A stretch of 8,040 nucleotides of DNA from contig JAEOSI010000091.1 in the NCBI GenBank assembly GCA_016840425.1, positions 1 through 8,040 on the forward strand, written 5' to 3'. Of the stretch, positions 143-8,040 are shown one piece after another. The notes beneath the pieces are model-generated. The model had not been told where the DNA came from and did not search any database. It saw only the letters and a program-made list of their open reading frames with translations. Numbering within the stretch: position 1 is the stretch's first letter; each line of letters starts with the position of its first letter. This DNA is from Candidatus Wukongarchaeum yapensis (lineage in GTDB: Archaea; Asgardarchaeota; Wukongarchaeia; Wukongarchaeales; Wukongarchaeaceae). The translations under genes and the position numbers were made by a program.

Positions 143-257
143 CTGAGATAACCTCCATGAATCTTTAAAAGAAAAGCTTGTGAAAATTTACAGTTCCATT
201 TTACAAAAAAAAGTAGAGTTGATAAAGGTAACTATAAAACTATAAAAGTTATTTGCT

Positions 258-277
258 AAAAAAGAAAAAAAGAGAAA
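258..277 (-). terminator. Oligo-T tract, putative intrinsic archaeal terminator after the 37-aa ORF
   Basis: Minus strand reads TTTCTCTTTTTTTCTTTTTT, starting about 24 nt after the stop at 301. Confidence 0.5.
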
Positions 278-300
278 GTTATGGTTTAGAGATCTACGTT

Positions 301-414
301 TTATAAGAGAAGCCACACTGCTACTACAGCCACTACCGCAATAGCTGCGAGAATCAACATGTCATGTATGCATAAACCCTCTTTATCTTTACACAGGGGA
401 CAAATTAGACCCAT
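301..414 (-). CDS. 37-aa microprotein: CxxC-x6-CxH motif followed by one C-terminal transmembrane helix
   Basis: MGLICPLCKDKEGLCIHDMLILAAIAVVAVVAVWLLL*. SD-like GGTGGT 4 nt upstream of the ATG, an in-frame stop immediately upstream, a downstream T-tract, and a 19-residue hydrophobic tail. Below the ORF-track cutoff. Confidence 0.7.
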   Translation of the reverse strand: MGLICPLCKDKEGLCIHDMLILAAIAVVAVVAVWLLL

Positions 415-476
415 TTATACCACCGATTATTTTAATTGTGGGAAACTCCCGCCTACCTTATTTATCGCAGCTAGAG

Positions 477-484
477 GTTATAAA
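477..484 (-). promoter_or_regulatory. Candidate TATA box (TTTATAAC) for the microprotein gene
   Basis: Minus strand GATAAATATG-TTTATAAC, about 63 nt upstream of the ATG at 414. A small inverted repeat GTGGGA-AAC-TCCCGC (438-452) lies near the implied transcription start. Confidence 0.3.
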
Positions 485-548
485 CATATTTATCAAAGTA
501 AAACCGAGTTAAGTGAGAAACTATTTTCTTAGAGATAGAGAGCAGTTT

Positions 549-564
549 AATAAAAGCAAAAAGA
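549..564 (-). terminator. Oligo-T tract, putative terminator of the purM-purP transcript
   Basis: Minus strand TCTTTTTGCTTTTATT, about 57 nt downstream of the purP stop. Confidence 0.4.
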
Positions 565-620
565 TGGGAGGGTTTATGATTTGTTTTATTGTTATTAAAT
601 CAACTTTTTTATTTTTGGTT

Positions 621-1808
621 TTATGTTACTATTTTTTCGAGCATATTGTGTTTTATTGCTCTTTTTATTTCTAGAGCGGTTCTTCTGCCACTGCTCATTC
701 TTTTTCTCCATAAGACATTGCCATAAGGATGGCCCCAAAATGCGTGGACGTTTGTTCCTCCGCCTATCCTGAAAGCTACGTCGTACACTACTGGTTCCAT
801 TTCAGGTTTTATAATTGTTTGGAGGCAAAAAGCGCCTATTATTCCCGGTTTGAAATATTTTTGTGTGGCTTTGACAAATTTTTCCCCTATTTCGAAGACA
901 TATCTTAGTATTGATTCTCTTGCTGTGCATATATTGTGACCTACAACGATGTATAGTGGTTCTTTCATACTATTTGGTAGTTCTAGTTGTTGTTGGGCAG
1001 GTAATCTTATGTATCCGTCTAAGTTGCTTTCAAATCTCCAATCAATGCCTAAAAGTTCCAAGGGCTCATCGCCTAACTCCTCGCTTATTAGGCTGTAGAA
1101 ATAGTCAAAGTTAAAAACTGGTCCTATGATATACTCTTCCATTCTTGCTTTTTCCAAGTCTTCTTTTGTGATTATGCCGCGTTTTATCAGTCGTTCTGCT
1201 TTTTCTTCGTATTCTTTTTTGGTTGAGGCTGTGAAGAATCCTCGTTCTAGTTTCATTTTTGCGTGGTGTAATTTTACCATTACAAGGCCTAATTCGTCTA
1301 TTTCTTCAGGAGATTCTAGTTTTTTGGGGGTTTTTATGCCGCCTTTTTCGCAAAGGCTGTAATAGTCGGCTATTTCTCCCTCTTCTCCCTCTTCGCCTCT
1401 TTTCCCTCTTTCTTCTATACGAAGCATGTTTCTTGAGCCCATGAGAGGTACTCTGAACTCATTTTCTATTTGATCCTCTCCCACATAAACGGTAAAGGCA
1501 CGGTTCGGCACAATTATCATGTTTTTTTCGCGCATAAACTCCTGTTTTTGAAGCATCTCTTTAAAAGAATTCAAAACTATCGCGTTATCAACACAACCAC
1601 ACACAAGGTTCCCATCTAAATATTTTGATTTTAGGTATTTAGTGTACGGTTTTTCTCGGTCTTTCTGGCAAAAAGCGTAAGTTTCAAACCCTTCGTCTTT
1701 GGCACCGTCTGTGATATCGAGAGCAGAATGAGAACCTATGGTACCAATAGTTATTTTTGATTTATCATACTTTTCAACTATTTTGTGTACTTCCTCTAAA
1801 CTTATCAT
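621..1808 (-). CDS. purP: PurP-family ATP-grasp formate-dependent formyltransferase (FAICAR synthetase-like, DUF1246/DUF1297 domains), long ERGFF-type clade
   Basis: Motifs IGTIGSHSALDI..GAKDEGF, IVPNRAF, VKL...ERGFF, GPVFNFDYF, DWRFESNLDG..RLPA, GHN..TARES, GAFCLQ, YDVAFRIGGGTN. SD AGGAGAG at 1826-1820. Located in a pur cluster. The exact step it catalyses is not certain for this clade. Confidence 0.9.
   Translation of the reverse strand: MISLEEVHKIVEKYDKSKITIGTIGSHSALDITDGAKDEGFETYAFCQKDREKPYTKYLKSKYLDGNLVCGCVDNAIVLNSFKEMLQKQEFMREKNMIIVPNRAFTVYVGEDQIENEFRVPLMGSRNMLRIEERGKRGEEGEEGEIADYYSLCEKGGIKTPKKLESPEEIDELGLVMVKLHHAKMKLERGFFTASTKKEYEEKAERLIKRGIITKEDLEKARMEEYIIGPVFNFDYFYSLISEELGDEPLELLGIDWRFESNLDGYIRLPAQQQLELPNSMKEPLYIVVGHNICTARESILRYVFEIGEKFVKATQKYFKPGIIGAFCLQTIIKPEMEPVVYDVAFRIGGGTNVHAFWGHPYGNVLWRKRMSSGRRTALEIKRAIKHNMLEKIVT
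1371..1411 (-). repeat. Purine-rich 9-nt tandem micro-repeat inside purP (GAAGAGGGA x2 plus degenerate copies) encoding ERGKRGEEGEEGE
   Basis: Read directly from the sequence; in-frame low-complexity stretch. Confidence 0.6.
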
Positions 1809-1866: not shown

Positions 1867-2925
1867 TTAAAATTTAATGGTTTCTTTTTCAGTTTTTATT
1901 TTTATCGCGCCCTCTTTGTTTGTGACTTTTCCTATTGTTTGGGCTTTTGTTCCGCGGTTTTTGCATATTCTAATTACTGTTTCACCCTCTTCTTTTGGGC
2001 AAATGATGCAAAAACCTATGCCTTGATTAAAGGTCCTGTACATTTCTTGTGTTTTGACATTTCCAAGCCTTTTAATTGATTTAAAAATTGGCAGGGAGTC
2101 GGGCATATTATCTAATTCGAATCCTAAATTAGCTATTTTCCCTACTCTTTTAAGTTTTGTAAAGCCTCCTCCTGTTATGTTTACTAATCCGTTAACGGTT
2201 GTTTTTTTAATAATTTCCATAACTTCAGGTACATATATTTTTGTGGGTTTTAACAGTTCTTCTCCTACGATAAATCCTTCTTCAACCTCATCATAGATCT
2301 TTAGCTTGGCGATGTCGAAGAAGACTTTTCTTGCTAAAGAAAGACCGTTGCTGTGAATCCCACTACTTTCAAGACCTATTATAACGTCTTCAACTTTTAT
2401 CTTATCTCCGAGGATTAAGTCTGATTTTTCCACGAATCCTAGAACTGTTACCGATATATCGAACCCTATTTTTCCAGTGATTCCTGTTATTACTCCAAGG
2501 TATGGTGCTGTTTCGCCTCCAACTATGGCGGTTTTTGCCTGTTTTGCCCCTTCAACTATTCCTTTTAGGAGATCTTCAACTAATTTTGGATCCATTTTTT
2601 CAAGGGCTATTGTATCCACTAAAGCTATGGGTTCTGCACCGACGCATAACGTATCATTAACGCTCATAGCTACGCCATCTATGCCAATAGTATCGTATTT
2701 ATCCATCATTTGTGCTACAAGAACTTTTGTTCCCACTCCATCAGTGTGGAGTGTAACGATTTTCTCCCCGATTTGGATAAGACCTGCGAAGTGTCCAAAA
2801 ACCCTTAAAACCTCTTTTCTAGCTTCACAGGTGCTCATAATCATCTTTAGAATTCGTTCTTTTGAAGAATCTAAAAGATCGATATCGACTCCCGCCTCCG
2901 CATAAGTTATAGATTTTTCACCCAA
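1867..2925 (-). CDS. purM: Phosphoribosylformylglycinamidine cyclo-ligase (AIR synthetase)
   Basis: Motifs ITYAEAGVDI, TDGVGTK, MSVNDTLCVGAEP, GGETA, SSGIHSNG, xITGGG, RTFNxGIG. TTG start with SD GAGGGGT at 2937-2931. Confidence 0.97.
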   Translation of the reverse strand: MGEKSITYAEAGVDIDLLDSSKERILKMIMSTCEARKEVLRVFGHFAGLIQIGEKIVTLHTDGVGTKVLVAQMMDKYDTIGIDGVAMSVNDTLCVGAEPIALVDTIALEKMDPKLVEDLLKGIVEGAKQAKTAIVGGETAPYLGVITGITGKIGFDISVTVLGFVEKSDLILGDKIKVEDVIIGLESSGIHSNGLSLARKVFFDIAKLKIYDEVEEGFIVGEELLKPTKIYVPEVMEIIKKTTVNGLVNITGGGFTKLKRVGKIANLGFELDNMPDSLPIFKSIKRLGNVKTQEMYRTFNQGIGFCIICPKEEGETVIRICKNRGTKAQTIGKVTNKEGAIKIKTEKETIKF

Positions 2926-2963
2926 TTTTTACCCCTCGAAACTTCTTTTAAAGGCTTTTTCAT
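2907..2963 (-). other. Upstream mini-ORF MKKPLKEVSRGKNWVKNL*; first 12 aa identical to PurC; overlaps the purM start out of frame
   Basis: This is the copy of the purC start codon and first codons inside the left inverted repeat. Whether it is translated is unknown. Confidence 0.5.
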
Positions 2964-2973
2964 GCCTTTTCAT
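2929..2973 (-). other. Second upstream mini-ORF MKRHEKAFKRSFEG*, in frame with purM and ending 3 nt before its TTG
   Basis: ATG at 2973-2971, TAA at 2931-2929, then AAA TTG. Whether it is translated is unknown. Confidence 0.4.
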
Positions 2974-3002
2974 GCCCCTTAACTTGACTTTACTTAAAAC
3001 AA

Positions 3003-3016
3003 TATTAAAACTTTTG
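3003..3016 (-). promoter_or_regulatory. Candidate BRE-TATA for purM (CAAAAG-TTTTAATA)
   Basis: Lies at nearly the same position within the repeat as the purC BRE-TATA (2-nt offset). Confidence 0.45.
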
Positions 3017-3105
3017 TGTATATTTTGTATATATCGGAAGATAATATGTGTTTTTTATACAATTTTATGTTAAAAAAAGCAATTCTTCAAAAATTTGGAA
3101 AAAGG

Positions 3106-4191
3106 TTAATATGTGTTTTTTAGCCATTCTTTAAGCCTTTGTGTGGGTGTAACGTATATGTTGTCAAGGATTGTTCCTTTTGCTTCTTTTATTTTTAAAA
3201 CTTCTATTAATGGCTTATTCGCTCCTCCCGCTAATCCGTTGGCGATTATGGCTGCTCCTTGTGCTGCTTCTTTGGTTTCTGGATCCAGTTTTTCTACTGG
3301 AAATATTTTTGCTTTGAGAAGGTTTTCACGTAACTTTTTAATCAAGCGCTTATTTTGGCCGTAACGCCCGGATAAATAGATTAAAGGTTCTTCTTCCGTT
3401 GTGGGATATACAGAGGGAATTAGACGATAGATGTCTTTTATTATTCCATCTAAATAAGCGTTTAAAGCTGTTTCATATTCTTTTTTTCCTTCTTCTGCTT
3501 TAATTATCAGATCCTCTATAGAGATTTCTAGGTTTTTTAAAAGATCCGTTATTCCGCCGCTTATAACCAAGTTTTTTTCAATATCACCTAAGAGGTATGC
3601 TAACTCGGCATCGAGGAAGCCGCAGCTTCTAAAGCCTATTGTTGCGCAACTTCCTCCTATGCCGTCGACAATGCCTCCATTTTTAACCGCTATGAAAGCG
3701 TTAAAGGCATAACCTAATTCAGCAAGAATAAAAGAGGATTCTTCATATTTTTGCCCTGTTTTTTCCCTATGTTGGAAGAGGGCGAAGGCGGTTGCACAAA
3801 CTTTGTCTGCGGTTCCCATGTCTATCCTGTTTGTTTTTCGCCATTTGGGAACTGTTGATAAGTGTTTTACACCAGGTACTGTGAAACAACGTGCGCCACG
3901 CCTTGATAGAAAACTGAGGACTTTTCTAATGCCAAGTGTAGATTTTTCTGTAGATTTTAGTGTTACAAGTAGTAGATCTTTTTCGGTTAAAGTGCTTATG
4001 TCTTTTACGGGTAATCCATATCCGCTAGGGGCCACTACACAGACTAAATCTTCTCCTACTAAGCTAGCTATAAGTTCAGGATCTGAGACAACTTCACGGG
4101 TTAGAAAAGATTTGCTTAAAAAGACCTCGCCGTCTTCGAGACCACAGATGTCATAACTAAAGCTTCCTGGATCGATGCCAAGGGTTTTCAC
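3106..4191 (-). CDS. DUF1464-family protein (predicted butyrate/acetate-kinase-like, ASKHA fold)
   Basis: Phosphate-1 motif GIDPGS, then APSGYGLP, DMGTADKV, ELGYAFNAFIAV..G.IVDGIGG, LDAELAYL, YLSGR, EAAQGAAIIANGLAGG, which together match DUF1464 as I recall the family. GTG start with GAGG about 9 nt upstream. Confidence 0.85.
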   Translation of the reverse strand: MKTLGIDPGSFSYDICGLEDGEVFLSKSFLTREVVSDPELIASLVGEDLVCVVAPSGYGLPVKDISTLTEKDLLLVTLKSTEKSTLGIRKVLSFLSRRGARCFTVPGVKHLSTVPKWRKTNRIDMGTADKVCATAFALFQHREKTGQKYEESSFILAELGYAFNAFIAVKNGGIVDGIGGSCATIGFRSCGFLDAELAYLLGDIEKNLVISGGITDLLKNLEISIEDLIIKAEEGKKEYETALNAYLDGIIKDIYRLIPSVYPTTEEEPLIYLSGRYGQNKRLIKKLRENLLKAKIFPVEKLDPETKEAAQGAAIIANGLAGGANKPLIEVLKIKEAKGTILDNIYVTPTQRLKEWLKNTY

Positions 4192-4224
4192 TTTGAAGAA
4201 CCTCGCTATAAAAACCCGTGAATG

Positions 4225-4234
4225 TTTTATAAAA
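4225..4234 (-). promoter_or_regulatory. Candidate TATA (palindromic TTTTATAAAA) for the DUF1464 gene, lying inside the repeat-bounded segment
   Basis: About 34 nt upstream of the GTG at 4191. Confidence 0.35.
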
Positions 4235-4252
4235 TAGTTTAGCTTTCAGAAA

Positions 4253-4419
4253 TTTTGAAGAATTGTTATTTTTTAACATAAAATTGTATAAAAAACATGT
4301 GTTACTCAAAGATATATACAAAAGTTTAGAAAATTTTATAATATTGTTTTAAGTAAAGTCAAGTTAAGGGGCATGAAAAGGCATGAAAAAGCCTTTAAAA
4401 GAAGTTTCTAGGGGCAAAA
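4253..4419 (+). repeat. Right arm of ~167-bp inverted repeat (promoter/leader and first 12 codons of purC)
   Basis: See left arm. About 145 of 167 positions match by hand alignment, with one indel. Contains the tandem GCATGAAAAG/GCATGAAAAA (4371-4390). Confidence 0.97.
4328..4341 (+). promoter_or_regulatory. Candidate BRE-TATA for purCSQL (AGAAAA-TTTTATAA)
   Basis: Purine-rich BRE directly followed by a canonical TATA. Implies a transcription start near 4365, just before the AGGGG SD (4367-4371). Confidence 0.55.
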
Positions 4420-5111
4420 CAAAGCAGGTTTATTCTACAGAAGACCCCACGCAGGTGATTCTCGAATTTTCTGACAGAATTACTGCCGGGGATGGTAAAA
4501 AACGTGATGAATTGCCCAATAAAGGCGTTTTGAACTGTGGAATTTCCACGAAATTACTACAACTTCTTGAGCAGACAGACATCCCCACCCATTACATAGA
4601 AACAATAGGCAAGGATAAGATGCTCGTTAGAAAACTGGAAATGCTCCCCTTGGAAGTTGTTTTAAGAAATATTGCGACGGGAAGCTTGATTAAGCGTTTA
4701 CAAATGATTAAGGAAAAAACTGTTTTAAAAAGGCCTATAGTCGAGTTTTTCTTGAAAAACGATGAGTATCATGACCCTTTCCTTTCTGAAGAGTATATAG
4801 CCCTATTAGAAATTGCGACACCTGAGGAAATAGAAGAGATGATAAGGCTTGCAAAAAAAGCAAACGATGTTTTATTACCTTTCTTTAAGAAAATCGGCAT
4901 AGACTTGGTAGATTTTAAACTTGAATTCGGCGGAGATACTGCGGGCATTTTGAGAATAGGAGACGAGATAAATCCAGACAGTATGAGGCTATGGGATACA
5001 GCAACTGGAAGGATACTGGATAAAGACAGGTATAGGAAAGACTTAGGGCAGGTAATTGAACACTATATCGAAGTTTACGAACGTGTAACAGGGAAAAAAT
5101 TCGAAGGATAA
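4383..5111 (+). CDS. purC: Phosphoribosylaminoimidazole-succinocarboxamide (SAICAR) synthase
   Basis: Motifs RGKTK.VY, FSDRITAGDG, EVVLRNIATGSL, EFFLKND, DFKLEFG, DEINPDSMRLWD, DKDRYR. Confidence 0.98.
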   Translation: MKKPLKEVSRGKTKQVYSTEDPTQVILEFSDRITAGDGKKRDELPNKGVLNCGISTKLLQLLEQTDIPTHYIETIGKDKMLVRKLEMLPLEVVLRNIATGSLIKRLQMIKEKTVLKRPIVEFFLKNDEYHDPFLSEEYIALLEIATPEEIEEMIRLAKKANDVLLPFFKKIGIDLVDFKLEFGGDTAGILRIGDEINPDSMRLWDTATGRILDKDRYRKDLGQVIEHYIEVYERVTGKKFEG

Positions 5112-5146
5112 ATGATTGTTTAATAAGAGTGAGAGTGCGTGATAAA

Positions 5147-5422
5147 TTGCCACAAAAATACACCGTAGAAATAATTATTGAAAACAAGCCTGCTGCAAGG
5201 GATCCGGAAGGAGAAACTGTGATGCGCGATCTTGTGCATAAGTCAGGTTATACTAACATTAAATCGGTAAGGACAGGGAAAATCTTGCGCTTAAACTTAG
5301 AAGCTTCCAGTGAAGCAGAGGCAAAAGATACCGTGATAAGGATGGTTAATGAGCTTAGAATTTACAACCCAGTAGCCCACATTTATCGTGTTGAGATAAA
5401 AGATAAGAGAGGAGAAAGTTGA
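5147..5422 (+). CDS. purS: FGAM synthase subunit PurS
   Basis: VEIIIENKP..RDPEGETV, SVRTGK, RIYNPV. The TTG at 5147 (MPQKYTVEI..., 91 aa) gives a typical PurS N-terminus. The ORF is open from the GTG at 5129, so the start is uncertain. Confidence 0.93.
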   Translation: MPQKYTVEIIIENKPAARDPEGETVMRDLVHKSGYTNIKSVRTGKILRLNLEASSEAEAKDTVIRMVNELRIYNPVAHIYRVEIKDKRGES

Positions 5423-6138
5423 ACACAGAAATAAAAATAGGCGTAGTCAGGTTTCCTGGCAGTAATTGTGATCTTGACACGGTCTATGTTCTTCGTGATG
5501 TTCTAGGGGTGAGTGCGGATCTTGTATGGCATAAGGATAAACTTGAAGGATTTGGTGGAATCGTTCTTCCCGGCGGCTTTGCTTATGGGGATGCTTTGCG
5601 GGCAGGAATAATTGCCGCTTATAGTCCCGTAATCCAAGAGGTAAAAACGTTAGCCCGAGAGGGAGTGCCCGTAGCGGGGATTTGTAATGGGTTTCAGGTC
5701 CTTATAGAGGCAGGACTTTTACCCGGAGCTTTACTACCTAATGATGGATTAAAGTTTATTTGTAAATGGGTTAATTTACGCGTAGAACATAGTGATACCG
5801 CTTTTACAAACGTTGAAAAAAAAGGAGGCTTATGGAAGCTTCCTATCGCCCATGGAGAAGGGAGGTATTTTGCCGATAAAACAATCTTAAAAGAACTTCA
5901 TGAAAACAACCAAATCGTTTTTCTTTACGTTAATGATGAAGGCGAACCTACGGAAGATGCAAACCCTAACGGTTCGTTGGAAAGCATAGCGGGTATATGT
6001 AATCTTGAGAGAAACGTTTTAGGCTTAATGCCTCACCCAGAAAGAGGTTCTGAAAAAACTCTCAGCCCTTATAGGACAGATCATGGAAAGAGGTTTTTCC
6101 AGTCTATGATCGAATACATAAGAAAGGGGGTGGCATGA
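5419..6138 (+). CDS. purQ: FGAM synthase glutaminase subunit PurQ
   Basis: FPGSNCD, LPGGFAYGD, GICNGFQ (catalytic Cys), IAHGEG, MPHPER (His/Glu of the triad). TTG start overlaps the purS stop (TTGA); SD GAGGAG upstream. Confidence 0.98.
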   Translation: MNTEIKIGVVRFPGSNCDLDTVYVLRDVLGVSADLVWHKDKLEGFGGIVLPGGFAYGDALRAGIIAAYSPVIQEVKTLAREGVPVAGICNGFQVLIEAGLLPGALLPNDGLKFICKWVNLRVEHSDTAFTNVEKKGGLWKLPIAHGEGRYFADKTILKELHENNQIVFLYVNDEGEPTEDANPNGSLESIAGICNLERNVLGLMPHPERGSEKTLSPYRTDHGKRFFQSMIEYIRKGVA

Positions 6139-6141
6139 AAC

Positions 6142-8040
6142 TTGACCTCTGTTTGTCTTAGACCTTCAGATATCACTTTAGAGCTGAACGATAACGAAAT
6201 AGGGAAGGTTAGGGAAATTTTGGGCAGAGAGCCTAATACTGTTGAATGGGCAATGATAGATGTAATGTGGTCGGAACACTGTTCTTATAAAAGTTCAAAG
6301 CCTATTTTGGAACTGTTGCCTTGGGAAGGTGCAAAGGTTTTAGTGGGGCCTGGGCAGGATGCGGGAGTTGTTAATATAGGGGATAATTTGGCGGTTGTTT
6401 TTAAAATTGAGAGTCATAATCATCCTAGTGCTGTAGATCCTTATAATGGGGCGGCTACGGGGATTGGAGGGATTGTTAGGGATATTCTTTGTATGGGCGC
6501 CCGTCCAATAGCATTAATCGATCCTTTAAGGTTCGGGTTACTTGATAATGGGCATACAAAATGGTTGTTAAAGTACGTGGTTAAAGGTATAGGGGATTAT
6601 GGAAACTGTATTGGAGTTCCTACTGTAGGAGGAGAGGTGGAATTTGATCCGAGTTTTGAGAAAAATTGTTTGGTTAATGTGGGATGTTTAGGGGTCACAA
6701 CTCATGATAAAATAATGCCGAGTAAGGGGGGTAATCCTGGAGATTACGTGGTTTTAATGGGTGGTTCTACGGGTAGGGATGGTATTCATGGTGTAACTTT
6801 TGCTTCGAAAGAGTTATCTGGGGATTCTGAGGAGGATGATAGGGGATCGGTTCAGATTGGTGATCCTTTTACAAAGAAGAAAATTATTGATGCGACTCTG
6901 GAAGCAATAGAGACGGGATTTGTTAAGGGGCTTAAGGATTTAGGAGGAGGAGGGTTAACCTGTGGTACTTGTGAAATGGCAGATGCAGCAGGTGTGGGTT
7001 TAGAAATAAATCTTGATGAGGTTTATCTTCGGGAGCCAGATATGGACACTTGGGAGATGGTTATTTCTGAGTCGCAGGAAAGAATGCTTTTCATAGTTGA
7101 CCCTGGGGGATTAAATGCAGTTACCGATGTTTTTGAAAAGTATGAGTTGCCTTATGCAGTGATAGGTAAGGTTACGGACACAGAAAGACTTGTCATGTAT
7201 AGAGGAGGGAATTTGGTTGTGGATTTGCCTCCAAGTATTCTCACAAAAGTTCCCACTATAGACAGAGAATCTAAAAAACCTCCCTATTTAGAAACCCCTT
7301 GGAAAATTAGAAAACCAGTCCCTCCCAAGGACATTGTCGGAGCTATATACGCCGTTCTTGCTTCTCCGAATATTGGTAGTAAGGAGTGGATTTATCAGCA
7401 GTATGATCATGAAGTGGGAGTGAGAACCGCTGTAAAGCCCGGTAAAGCAGATGCCGCCGTATTGCGAGTTCTTGGAAATAAAAAGGGCATCGCCATAGCC
7501 ACAGATTGTAACTCTCGCCATGTTTATTTAGACCCGTATAATGGGGGCGTAGAAGCCGTTGTTGAAGCCTGTCGTAATGTCACTTCGGTGGGAGCCGAAC
7601 CTGTAGGAATGGTTGATTGCTGTAACTTCGGAAACCCTGAAGATCCTGAAATTTTCTGGCAATTTAAAGAAGCGGTGAGGGGGATGGCGGATGCATGTAA
7701 GTTTTTGAAAGTTCCGTGTGTTGGGGGAAATGTGAGTTTTTACAACGAAGACACTGTTACTGGGATTGCGATAAAACCTGCTCCAGTAGTGATGGTGGCA
7801 GGTTTGATGGAGGATGTGGAAAAGGCAGTCACTATGGAATTTAAGCAACCAGGTGAAAAGATAGTGATTGGGGGCGAAACTTTGGACGAAATTGAAGGAT
7901 CTGAATACTATACTTTAATACATAAAATAGAGGGAGGCAACCCTCCAAAAGTAGATCTTTTAAAGGAAAAACGTGCAATGCGTGCAATGCTCGAAGTAAT
8001 AAATAAAGGGTATATCACCGCTTCTCATGACTGCTCGCGG
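6142..8040 (+). CDS. purL: FGAM synthase subunit PurL (small type), 3'-truncated by the window edge
   Basis: Hand translation is open for 633 codons from TTG 6142: WSEHCSYKSS, ESHNHPS, GGIVRDI, TGRDGIHG, VQIGDPF, DLGGGGL, SESQERM, YQQYDHEV, NFGNP, GGNVSFYN. SD GGGGGTGG at 6126-6133. Absent from the ORF track because it lacks a stop in the window. Confidence 0.97.
   Translation, partial: MTSVCLRPSDITLELNDNEIGKVREILGREPNTVEWAMIDVMWSEHCSYKSSKPILELLPWEGAKVLVGPGQDAGVVNIGDNLAVVFKIESHNHPSAVDPYNGAATGIGGIVRDILCMGARPIALIDPLRFGLLDNGHTKWLLKYVVKGIGDYGNCIGVPTVGGEVEFDPSFEKNCLVNVGCLGVTTHDKIMPSKGGNPGDYVVLMGGSTGRDGIHGVTFASKELSGDSEEDDRGSVQIGDPFTKKKIIDATLEAIETGFVKGLKDLGGGGLTCGTCEMADAAGVGLEINLDEVYLREPDMDTWEMVISESQERMLFIVDPGGLNAVTDVFEKYELPYAVIGKVTDTERLVMYRGGNLVVDLPPSILTKVPTIDRESKKPPYLETPWKIRKPVPPKDIVGAIYAVLASPNIGSKEWIYQQYDHEVGVRTAVKPGKADAAVLRVLGNKKGIAIATDCNSRHVYLDPYNGGVEAVVEACRNVTSVGAEPVGMVDCCNFGNPEDPEIFWQFKEAVRGMADACKFLKVPCVGGNVSFYNEDTVTGIAIKPAPVVMVAGLMEDVEKAVTMEFKQPGEKIVIGGETLDEIEGSEYYTLIHKIEGGNPPKVDLLKEKRAMRAMLEVINKGYITASHDCSR
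7972..7989 (+). repeat. Perfect 9-bp tandem duplication CGTGCAATG x2 (RAM-RAM) within purL
   Basis: Read directly from the sequence; frame-preserving. Confidence 0.75.

Follow-up and report, generated by a model that had tools for sequence, protein, structure and literature searches.

An inverted copy of the purC promoter beside purM in Candidatus Wukongarchaeum: concerted evolution of a probably static duplication

The window, that is, the whole 8,040-nt stretch of Candidatus Wukongarchaeum yapensis DNA analysed here, is one entire contig (C82) of a metagenome-assembled genome of 2.16 Mb that comprises 277 contigs and is 92% complete. It carries purine biosynthesis genes in two units that read away from each other, with a gene of the DUF1464 family between them.

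621-1808, minus strand: purP, archaeal FAICAR synthetase (DUF1246 and DUF1297; Pfam E = 4e-74 and 1.9e-37), the second gene of the purM-purP unit
1867-2925, minus strand: purM, AIR synthase (Pfam AIRS and AIRS_C; bounds are those of the open reading frame)
3106-4191, minus strand: DUF1464 gene, one complete open reading frame (Pfam E = 2.5e-91), of the ASKHA or "butyrate-kinase-like" family
4383-5111, plus strand: purC (Pfam), with its ATG at 4383
5129-5422, plus strand: purS (Pfam)
5419-6138, plus strand: purQ (Pfam)
6142 to the contig end (8040), plus strand: purL (Pfam)

The purM start is a TTG at 2925-2923, the earliest possible start past an in-frame TAA. The DUF1464 gene has a Shine-Dalgarno sequence of its own (GAGGT); NCBIfam gave only a sub-threshold butyrate kinase match for its protein, and a search of the literature on DUF1464 found nothing specific. 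The last 144 nt of the window are also the first 144 nt of a second contig (C114), on which purL ends and is followed by two purF paralogues and purD (GATase_7 and GARS_A matches), a continuation of the purC operon. The region upstream of purF thus belongs to that same operon. DUF1464 adjoins pur genes in 0 of 14 other Asgard genomes, and since it lies away from them there, both its insertion and the promoter duplication described below appear to be specific to this genus.

The DUF1464 gene sits between the arms of a long inverted repeat. The arms are 170 nt long and 1153 nt apart, and they are 83% identical without gaps and 88% identical with them (BLAST E = 1.4e-53). The original prediction, made from the letters of the window, had placed here inverted repeats of ~166 bp that enclose one complete gene and share a perfect 70-bp core running into purC, and each of these features is borne out. 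It had also proposed a search for additional copies; none of the arms or their blocks was found in the 2.16-Mb genome beyond these two. The elements in and around the arms are the following.

2907-2963, minus strand: relic of the purC start, in the window an 18-codon upstream open reading frame that overlaps the purM TTG
2927-3096, minus strand (towards purM): purM-side arm, which repeats in inverted form the purC promoter, leader and first 12 codons
2938-3007 and 4339-4408: left and right copies of a 70-nt perfect block
3001-3016, minus strand: candidate BRE/TATA of the purM unit, variant alpha, CAAAAG then TTTTAATATT
3049-3077 and 4269-4297: left and right copies of a 29-nt block, a candidate regulator binding site
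3072-3096, minus strand: oligo-T tracts T7, T5 and T5 just past the DUF1464 stop, a candidate DUF1464 terminator
4225-4234, minus strand: candidate TATA of DUF1464 itself (TTTTATAAAA)
4250-4419, plus strand: purC-side arm, with the purC promoter, leader and first 12 codons
4324-4345, plus strand: candidate BRE/TATA of the purC unit, variant beta, a 15-nt segment (4324-4338) then TTTTATAATATT (4334-4345)

The purC arm begins with T-rich tracts, followed by the 29-nt block, a segment termed W, GATATATACAAAA, a segment termed V with the BRE/TATA, a short spacer, the leader, the ATG and 12 codons, and the purM arm holds the same series of elements. The 70-nt block takes in the downstream part of the TATA-like element, the spacer, the presumptive start region, the leader with its Shine-Dalgarno sequence, the ATG and 26 coding bases of purC; the whole repeat reaches about 37 bases into the gene. 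Two further perfect blocks are of 13 nt each. Between the 70-nt and 29-nt blocks the arms have diverged in V (15 nt, beside the TATA) and in W (16 nt), which are parted by a conserved block of 12-13 nt. The sequence supports the earlier proposal that the arms are duplicated promoter modules for two divergent pur transcription units.

In archaeal BRE/TATA promoters the TATA-like element lies ~26 nt upstream of the transcription start. On the purC side the element reads AGAAAA then TTTTATAATATT (4328-4345), its TATA-like part lying 38-49 nt before the ATG, and transcription of purC would begin near 4366, because the pattern of a conserved TATA, a variable spacer (4353-4358) and a conserved leader fits such a start. 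The putative BRE/TATA elements of the two arms, assigned from sequence, are the two different variants that had been described, and the purC and purM units may be co-regulated. The purC leader has AGGGG 16 nt before the ATG, and in a genome-wide profile pentamers of Shine-Dalgarno type peak 16 to 11 nt before start codons, which fits both the purC and the purM start. The corresponding profile for TATA-like words, by position before start codons across the genome, was flat and of no help in placing the promoter. The candidate TATA of DUF1464 lies just inside the inner edge of the right arm; this stretch is shared by all purC-side edges and is unlike the purM-side edge. The arms do have the outward-reading T6/T7 tracts that had been noted, and as oligo-T tracts serve as terminators in archaea, those just past the DUF1464 stop may terminate its transcription. 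A structured cis-regulatory RNA (riboswitch or leader) was considered and rejected: an Rfam scan of the whole window returned one unrelated sub-threshold match only, and both leaders and both inner blocks fold no better than shuffled sequence (z -0.7 to +0.5).

The two ends of the repeat differ in what the copied codons do. The purM start lies two bases outside the repeat, and its Shine-Dalgarno sequence, GAGGGG (2937-2932), derives from purC codons 9-11; the TTG and the preceding GAGGG motif are retained in all purM arms. The remainder of the copied purC start has fared otherwise. In G001 and L042 1-nt deletions disrupt its frame, in L038/L048 and L050 the frame is degenerate, and the region is heavily decayed in lineages C and D (lineages are defined below), whereas purC arms have no indel in the corresponding region of the arm alignment. 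Since frame-breaking indels and decay are confined to purM arms, the copied start on the purM side is, judged by its sequence, a decaying relic apart from the reused Shine-Dalgarno motif. A functional upstream open reading frame on that side was rejected as a conserved feature on the same grounds. Because the repeated codons are truly coding at purC alone, the copy went from purC to purM, and the purC-side arm is likely to be the source.

Relatives of the locus were gathered in two ways. A scan of metagenome contigs with the core of the repeat found two more contigs, and exact-protein look-ups with the members of two 90% DUF1464 clusters and with PurC led to further contigs in NCBI, ENA and JGI assemblies. 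The resulting set has 17 contigs with DNA (14 spanning both arms and 3 partial) and one gene table without DNA. By flank identity these fall into four lineages: A (the window and nine others), B (G001, L047 and L049), C (L038, L039 and L048) and D (L050). One member of the set, L074, is 100% identical to the window and may share its sample. G001, the sister species, matches the window collinearly over 7.7 kb (90.5% identity) and shares its inverted repeat. The purM-side arm is found in 14 of 14 assemblies that cover that side, and the arm boundaries are the same on all 14 contigs that span both arms. The repeat is thus recovered in 16 contigs besides the window, from different samples and assemblers, in agreement with the earlier view that it is not an assembly duplication.

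DUF1464 is co-oriented with purM and divergent from purC in 17 of 17 contigs and in the gene table. Between lineages, identity at the fourfold-degenerate sites of DUF1464 and purC is only 65-81%, and such divergence together with a single orientation indicates that the arrangement is old and stable. The truly independent lineages number four, and under slow, neutral flipping chance alone would give all four the same orientation about 1 time in 8. Two raw-read runs yielded 1 and 0 reads, essentially nothing from the organism. The two best Logan contig sets match the window at 100% identity and are uninformative on orientation; contigs built at k=31 break at the repeat cores, here into pieces covering 2700-2967, 3049-4298, 4269-4408 and 4379-4700.

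Comparison of the arms, in an alignment of 29 of them, indicates that the two copies have not evolved independently. Within genomes the inner block is identical between arms at 41/43 positions in lineage A, 43/43 in L044, 43/44 in lineage B and 44/45 in lineage D, compared with 38-41/44 between lineages. The outer block is identical at 75/76 within the window's own genome (G000), and at 72/76 and 69/76 between G000 and G001. Segment by segment, paralogous arms are therefore more alike than orthologous ones. Substitutions unique to lineage D are found in both arms at columns 63 and 177, as are differences between lineages A and B at columns 31, 172 and 180. In L044 and L045, strains diverged from the window by ~1-2.6%, the purM arm has a W tract of purC type (15/16 positions alike); in the window (G000) the figure is 7/16. 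This is a discrete and recent conversion tract, 16 nt long, with the purC arm as donor and the purM arm as recipient. Lineage D is fully homogenised upstream of the TATA: V and W are identical between arms, and the inner block is identical at 44/45 positions or throughout. The closeness of paralogues, the shared lineage-specific substitutions, the W tract and the homogenised arms of lineage D together point to arms that evolve in concert by repeated gene conversion.

Conversion acts within a genome and does not account for identity across lineages. Of 29 arms, 27 have the 29-nt block intact, the two purM arms of lineage C having one change, and the outer block of the purC arm is 91-97% identical between lineages versus the 65-81% seen at neutral sites. 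Conservation above the neutral rate argues for purifying selection on the 29-nt and outer blocks. Located ~70-97 nt upstream of the presumed transcription start and conserved far above neutral expectation, the 29-nt block is probably regulatory, a candidate site for binding of a regulator. No copy of it was found upstream of purE or purB, and a shared motif search there gave nothing above chance. The mosaic of perfect and diverged blocks, which had been put down to gene conversion, recombination or selection and held to argue against misassembly, is well accounted for, on the arm alignment and the lineage-specific changes, by gene conversion plus selection.

One feature of the mosaic calls for more than conversion in a single direction. 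The V segment occurs in two variants: alpha has AAAC and then one or two copies of an 11-nt unit, and beta has an 11-nt insertion that gives TTTTATAATATT. Beta is found in the purC arm of lineage A (window 4324-4338) and in the purM arm of lineage B (L037:3505-3519, L047 and L049). Alpha is found in the purM arm of lineages A, C and D and in the purC arm of B, C and D, so that in A and B the arm without beta carries alpha. A segment identical at 15/15 positions cannot arise twice, which means that the beta segment has changed arms; within one genome, conversion in a single direction would remove one of the variants, so the swapped sides need another route. Two may be considered from the sequences. 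One is reciprocal exchange, with two crossovers amounting to a transient inversion, together with contraction of the 11-nt tandem unit. The other is allelic recombination among haplotypes for which the ancestor was polymorphic. An exchange of BRE/TATA variants between the arms had been predicted, and movement of this segment between them did occur in evolution, in that the same 15-nt variant lies in opposite arms in two species.

With this anatomy, one orientation in all assemblies, concerted evolution of the arms and conservation above the neutral rate, the locus is probably no switch but a static inverted duplication, in which gene conversion and selection maintain two copies of the purC promoter. 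As an alternative, host homologous recombination could now and then cross over in the 70-nt or 29-nt blocks, both of them perfect and long enough for the purpose, and leave populations with a minority of molecules that carry DUF1464 the other way round and the BRE/TATA modules of the two pur units exchanged, with no need for a dedicated recombinase. Recombination between the arms has clearly happened several times, and the presence of alpha and beta on opposite arms in lineages A and B, most simply a product of reciprocal exchange, is the one observation that keeps such a flip-flop alive; inversions between the terminal inverted repeats of IS elements are, moreover, documented in bacteria (PMC3004938). 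Against this, 17 contigs and one gene table from four lineages show, at the level of contigs, one orientation, and a balanced mixture is made less likely by the fact that most of the assemblies continue unbroken across both arms. Little would change in function either, since both arms carry what appear to be working promoters: each holds a complete promoter module outside the crossover points, and a flip would leave both pur units driven. A recombinase-independent flip-flop is on this evidence unlikely. That natural populations hold a minority inverted isomer through low-frequency reciprocal crossover, the opposite placement of beta being a fossil of two crossovers, is quite unlikely; if true, the archaeal lineage closest to eukaryotes would have a promoter-swap polymorphism that needs no recombinase. 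A literature search on archaeal invertible promoters driven by homologous recombination found nothing specific.

Programmed phase variation, a regulated switch in which the segment is turned round by a site-specific invertase, has in its favour that inverted repeats bracket a short segment beside promoters and that tyrosine recombinase genes exist elsewhere in the genome. Matches to PF00589 lie only on contigs other than those of the locus (C133, C192 and C189 in G000 and C31 in G001), the single Phage_integrase match of G001 being a 314-aa open frame (E = 6.9e-44) to which G000 has a close counterpart. The window contig, as had been reported, has no recombinase gene, nor does the 31.9-kb contig of G001, and serine recombinases (PF00239) gave no match in either genome. 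The arms, moreover, are 170 nt of promoter and coding sequence and not short recombinase sites, the orientation is everywhere the same, and a flip would turn off no gene. Programmed inversion is in consequence highly improbable, and the reading of the locus as an invertible promoter-swap cassette is not upheld: one orientation is seen, the locus contigs have no recombinase gene and inversion would switch no gene on or off. A single orientation of DUF1464 in all relatives, which had been named as an outcome counting against active inversion, is what the contigs show. Similarly, a single gene bracketed by inverted repeats superficially resembles a composite element, the arms being the terminal repeats of a transposon or MITE carrying DUF1464, yet there are only two copies in the genome, the enclosed gene is DUF1464 and not a transposase, and the arms contain the purC start and promoter. 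The mobile element was rejected on the lack of a transposase and the copy number. An assembly artefact is countered by recovery of the locus by several assemblers from at least 15 samples or assemblies, with lineage-specific differences. That the repeat is either of these is extremely unlikely.

The static duplication may have come about and be maintained as follows. The purC promoter module would have been copied, in inverted orientation, to the start of purM, and the SD-like GAGGG within the copied purC codons would have been reused for the purM TTG start. Two near-identical promoters would then fire outwards, one into purC-S-Q-L-F-F'-D and the other into purM-purP, with DUF1464 between them transcribed from its own promoter and terminated in the T-tracts of the arm. 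Two forces would keep the copies alike: purifying selection on the promoter and regulatory blocks, and recurrent non-allelic homologous recombination between the arms, mainly as gene conversion.

The locus so understood does not reveal a new kind of genetic switch. It offers a natural example of two halves of a pathway placed under one promoter design, in which the promoter was copied and the copies were kept in step, and it provides evidence at the sequence level that uncultured Asgard archaea carry out non-allelic homologous recombination. The near-invariant 29-nt block stands out as a candidate site for a purine-responsive regulator.

Several known systems bear comparison. Plastid inverted-repeat isomers are a known parallel for flip-flop driven by recombination. 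In bacteria, inversions between the terminal repeats of IS elements resemble the present case in that short inverted repeats bracket ~1 kb and could recombine without a dedicated invertase; there, inverted isomers were observed at 9% of loci (PMC3004938), whereas here no isomer is seen in 17 contigs, and the arms are a host promoter and not transposon ends. The fimS, hin and Bacteroides invertons likewise have inverted repeats adjoining promoters, but they differ from this locus, where the repeats are long, no recombinase is nearby, the promoters are placed in the arms and not in the segment that would flip, a flip would have no on/off outcome and one orientation is seen. Closer to home, purCSQL is a conserved operon in other Asgard genomes, and in one of these (G008) purP is divergent from it, so that another pur gene reads away from purCSQL as purM does here; in this genus, by contrast, DUF1464 interrupts the intergenic region and there are two purC promoter modules. 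The nearest likeness is to inverted duplicates homogenised by gene conversion, of which the enterobacterial tuf genes, rRNA operons, plastid inverted repeats and Y-chromosome palindromes are examples. As in these, there are two inverted copies of common origin, with paralogues closer than orthologues, mosaic tracts and shared lineage-specific changes. Unlike duplicates of the tuf or rRNA type, the unit is not a whole gene but 170 nt of promoter, leader and start codon, and the host is an uncultured Asgard archaeon. The locus thus adds a case to a known phenomenon, inverted duplicates that evolve in concert, combined with promoter duplication for co-expression.

The 144 nt at the 3' end of the window (7897-8040) are identical to the start of another contig of the same genome, C114, on which (C114:1-4794) the rest of purL precedes two purF paralogues and purD. 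In light of this shared end and the genes that continue from it, the purC-side promoter probably drives an operon of seven genes.

The gene that separates this operon from purM and purP, DUF1464 (window 3106-4191), has its closest relatives beyond the genus at only about 44% identity, spread over many archaeal groups, and a weak butyrate-kinase-like (ASKHA) signal is the sole hint of its function. DUF1464 does not adjoin pur genes in 14 other Asgard genomes, so that its placement between the pur units is genus-specific.

On the purM side, the decayed purM arm of lineage C, one of the four lineages with the pur locus, no longer has its stop codons in frame with purM. The purM call in one sequence of this lineage (L048:2645-3814) is 389 aa long and exceeds the other purM calls by 37 residues, and these extra residues are probably an artefact of the gene caller.

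Inverted repeats also occur on three other contigs of the genome:

C43:5305-5473 and 6963-7131 (L078), inverted repeat with arms of 170 nt, 85% identical, each arm composed of two tandem units of ~70-80 nt apiece
C205:4343-4936 and 7459-8015 (L079), inverted repeats 307 nt and 261 nt long, with 84-88% identity
C160:1-2955 (L080), AhpC/TSA peroxiredoxin gene duplicated in inverted orientation, 98% identical, 471 and 370 nt

The repeat on C43 is a second one with the same geometry as that of the pur locus, and encloses a single gene, for a 432-aa HEAT-repeat protein, with divergent neighbors; no further copies of its repeat unit were found in the genome. The repeats on C205 surround a region with a PIN-domain gene, and the AhpC/TSA copies on C160, which flank a DUF92 membrane-protein gene, are a candidate for another case of recent duplication or gene conversion.

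Beyond purP, an A/T-rich spacer of ~480 nt (window 143-620), which differs from the sister species by an indel around 201-299, separates this gene from a CBS-domain gene whose start lies off the contig end. In another Asgard genome (G008, contig C72; L054), purP is divergent from purCSQL and lies ~550 nt upstream, an arrangement that may represent the ancestral layout from before DUF1464 was inserted and the promoter duplicated.
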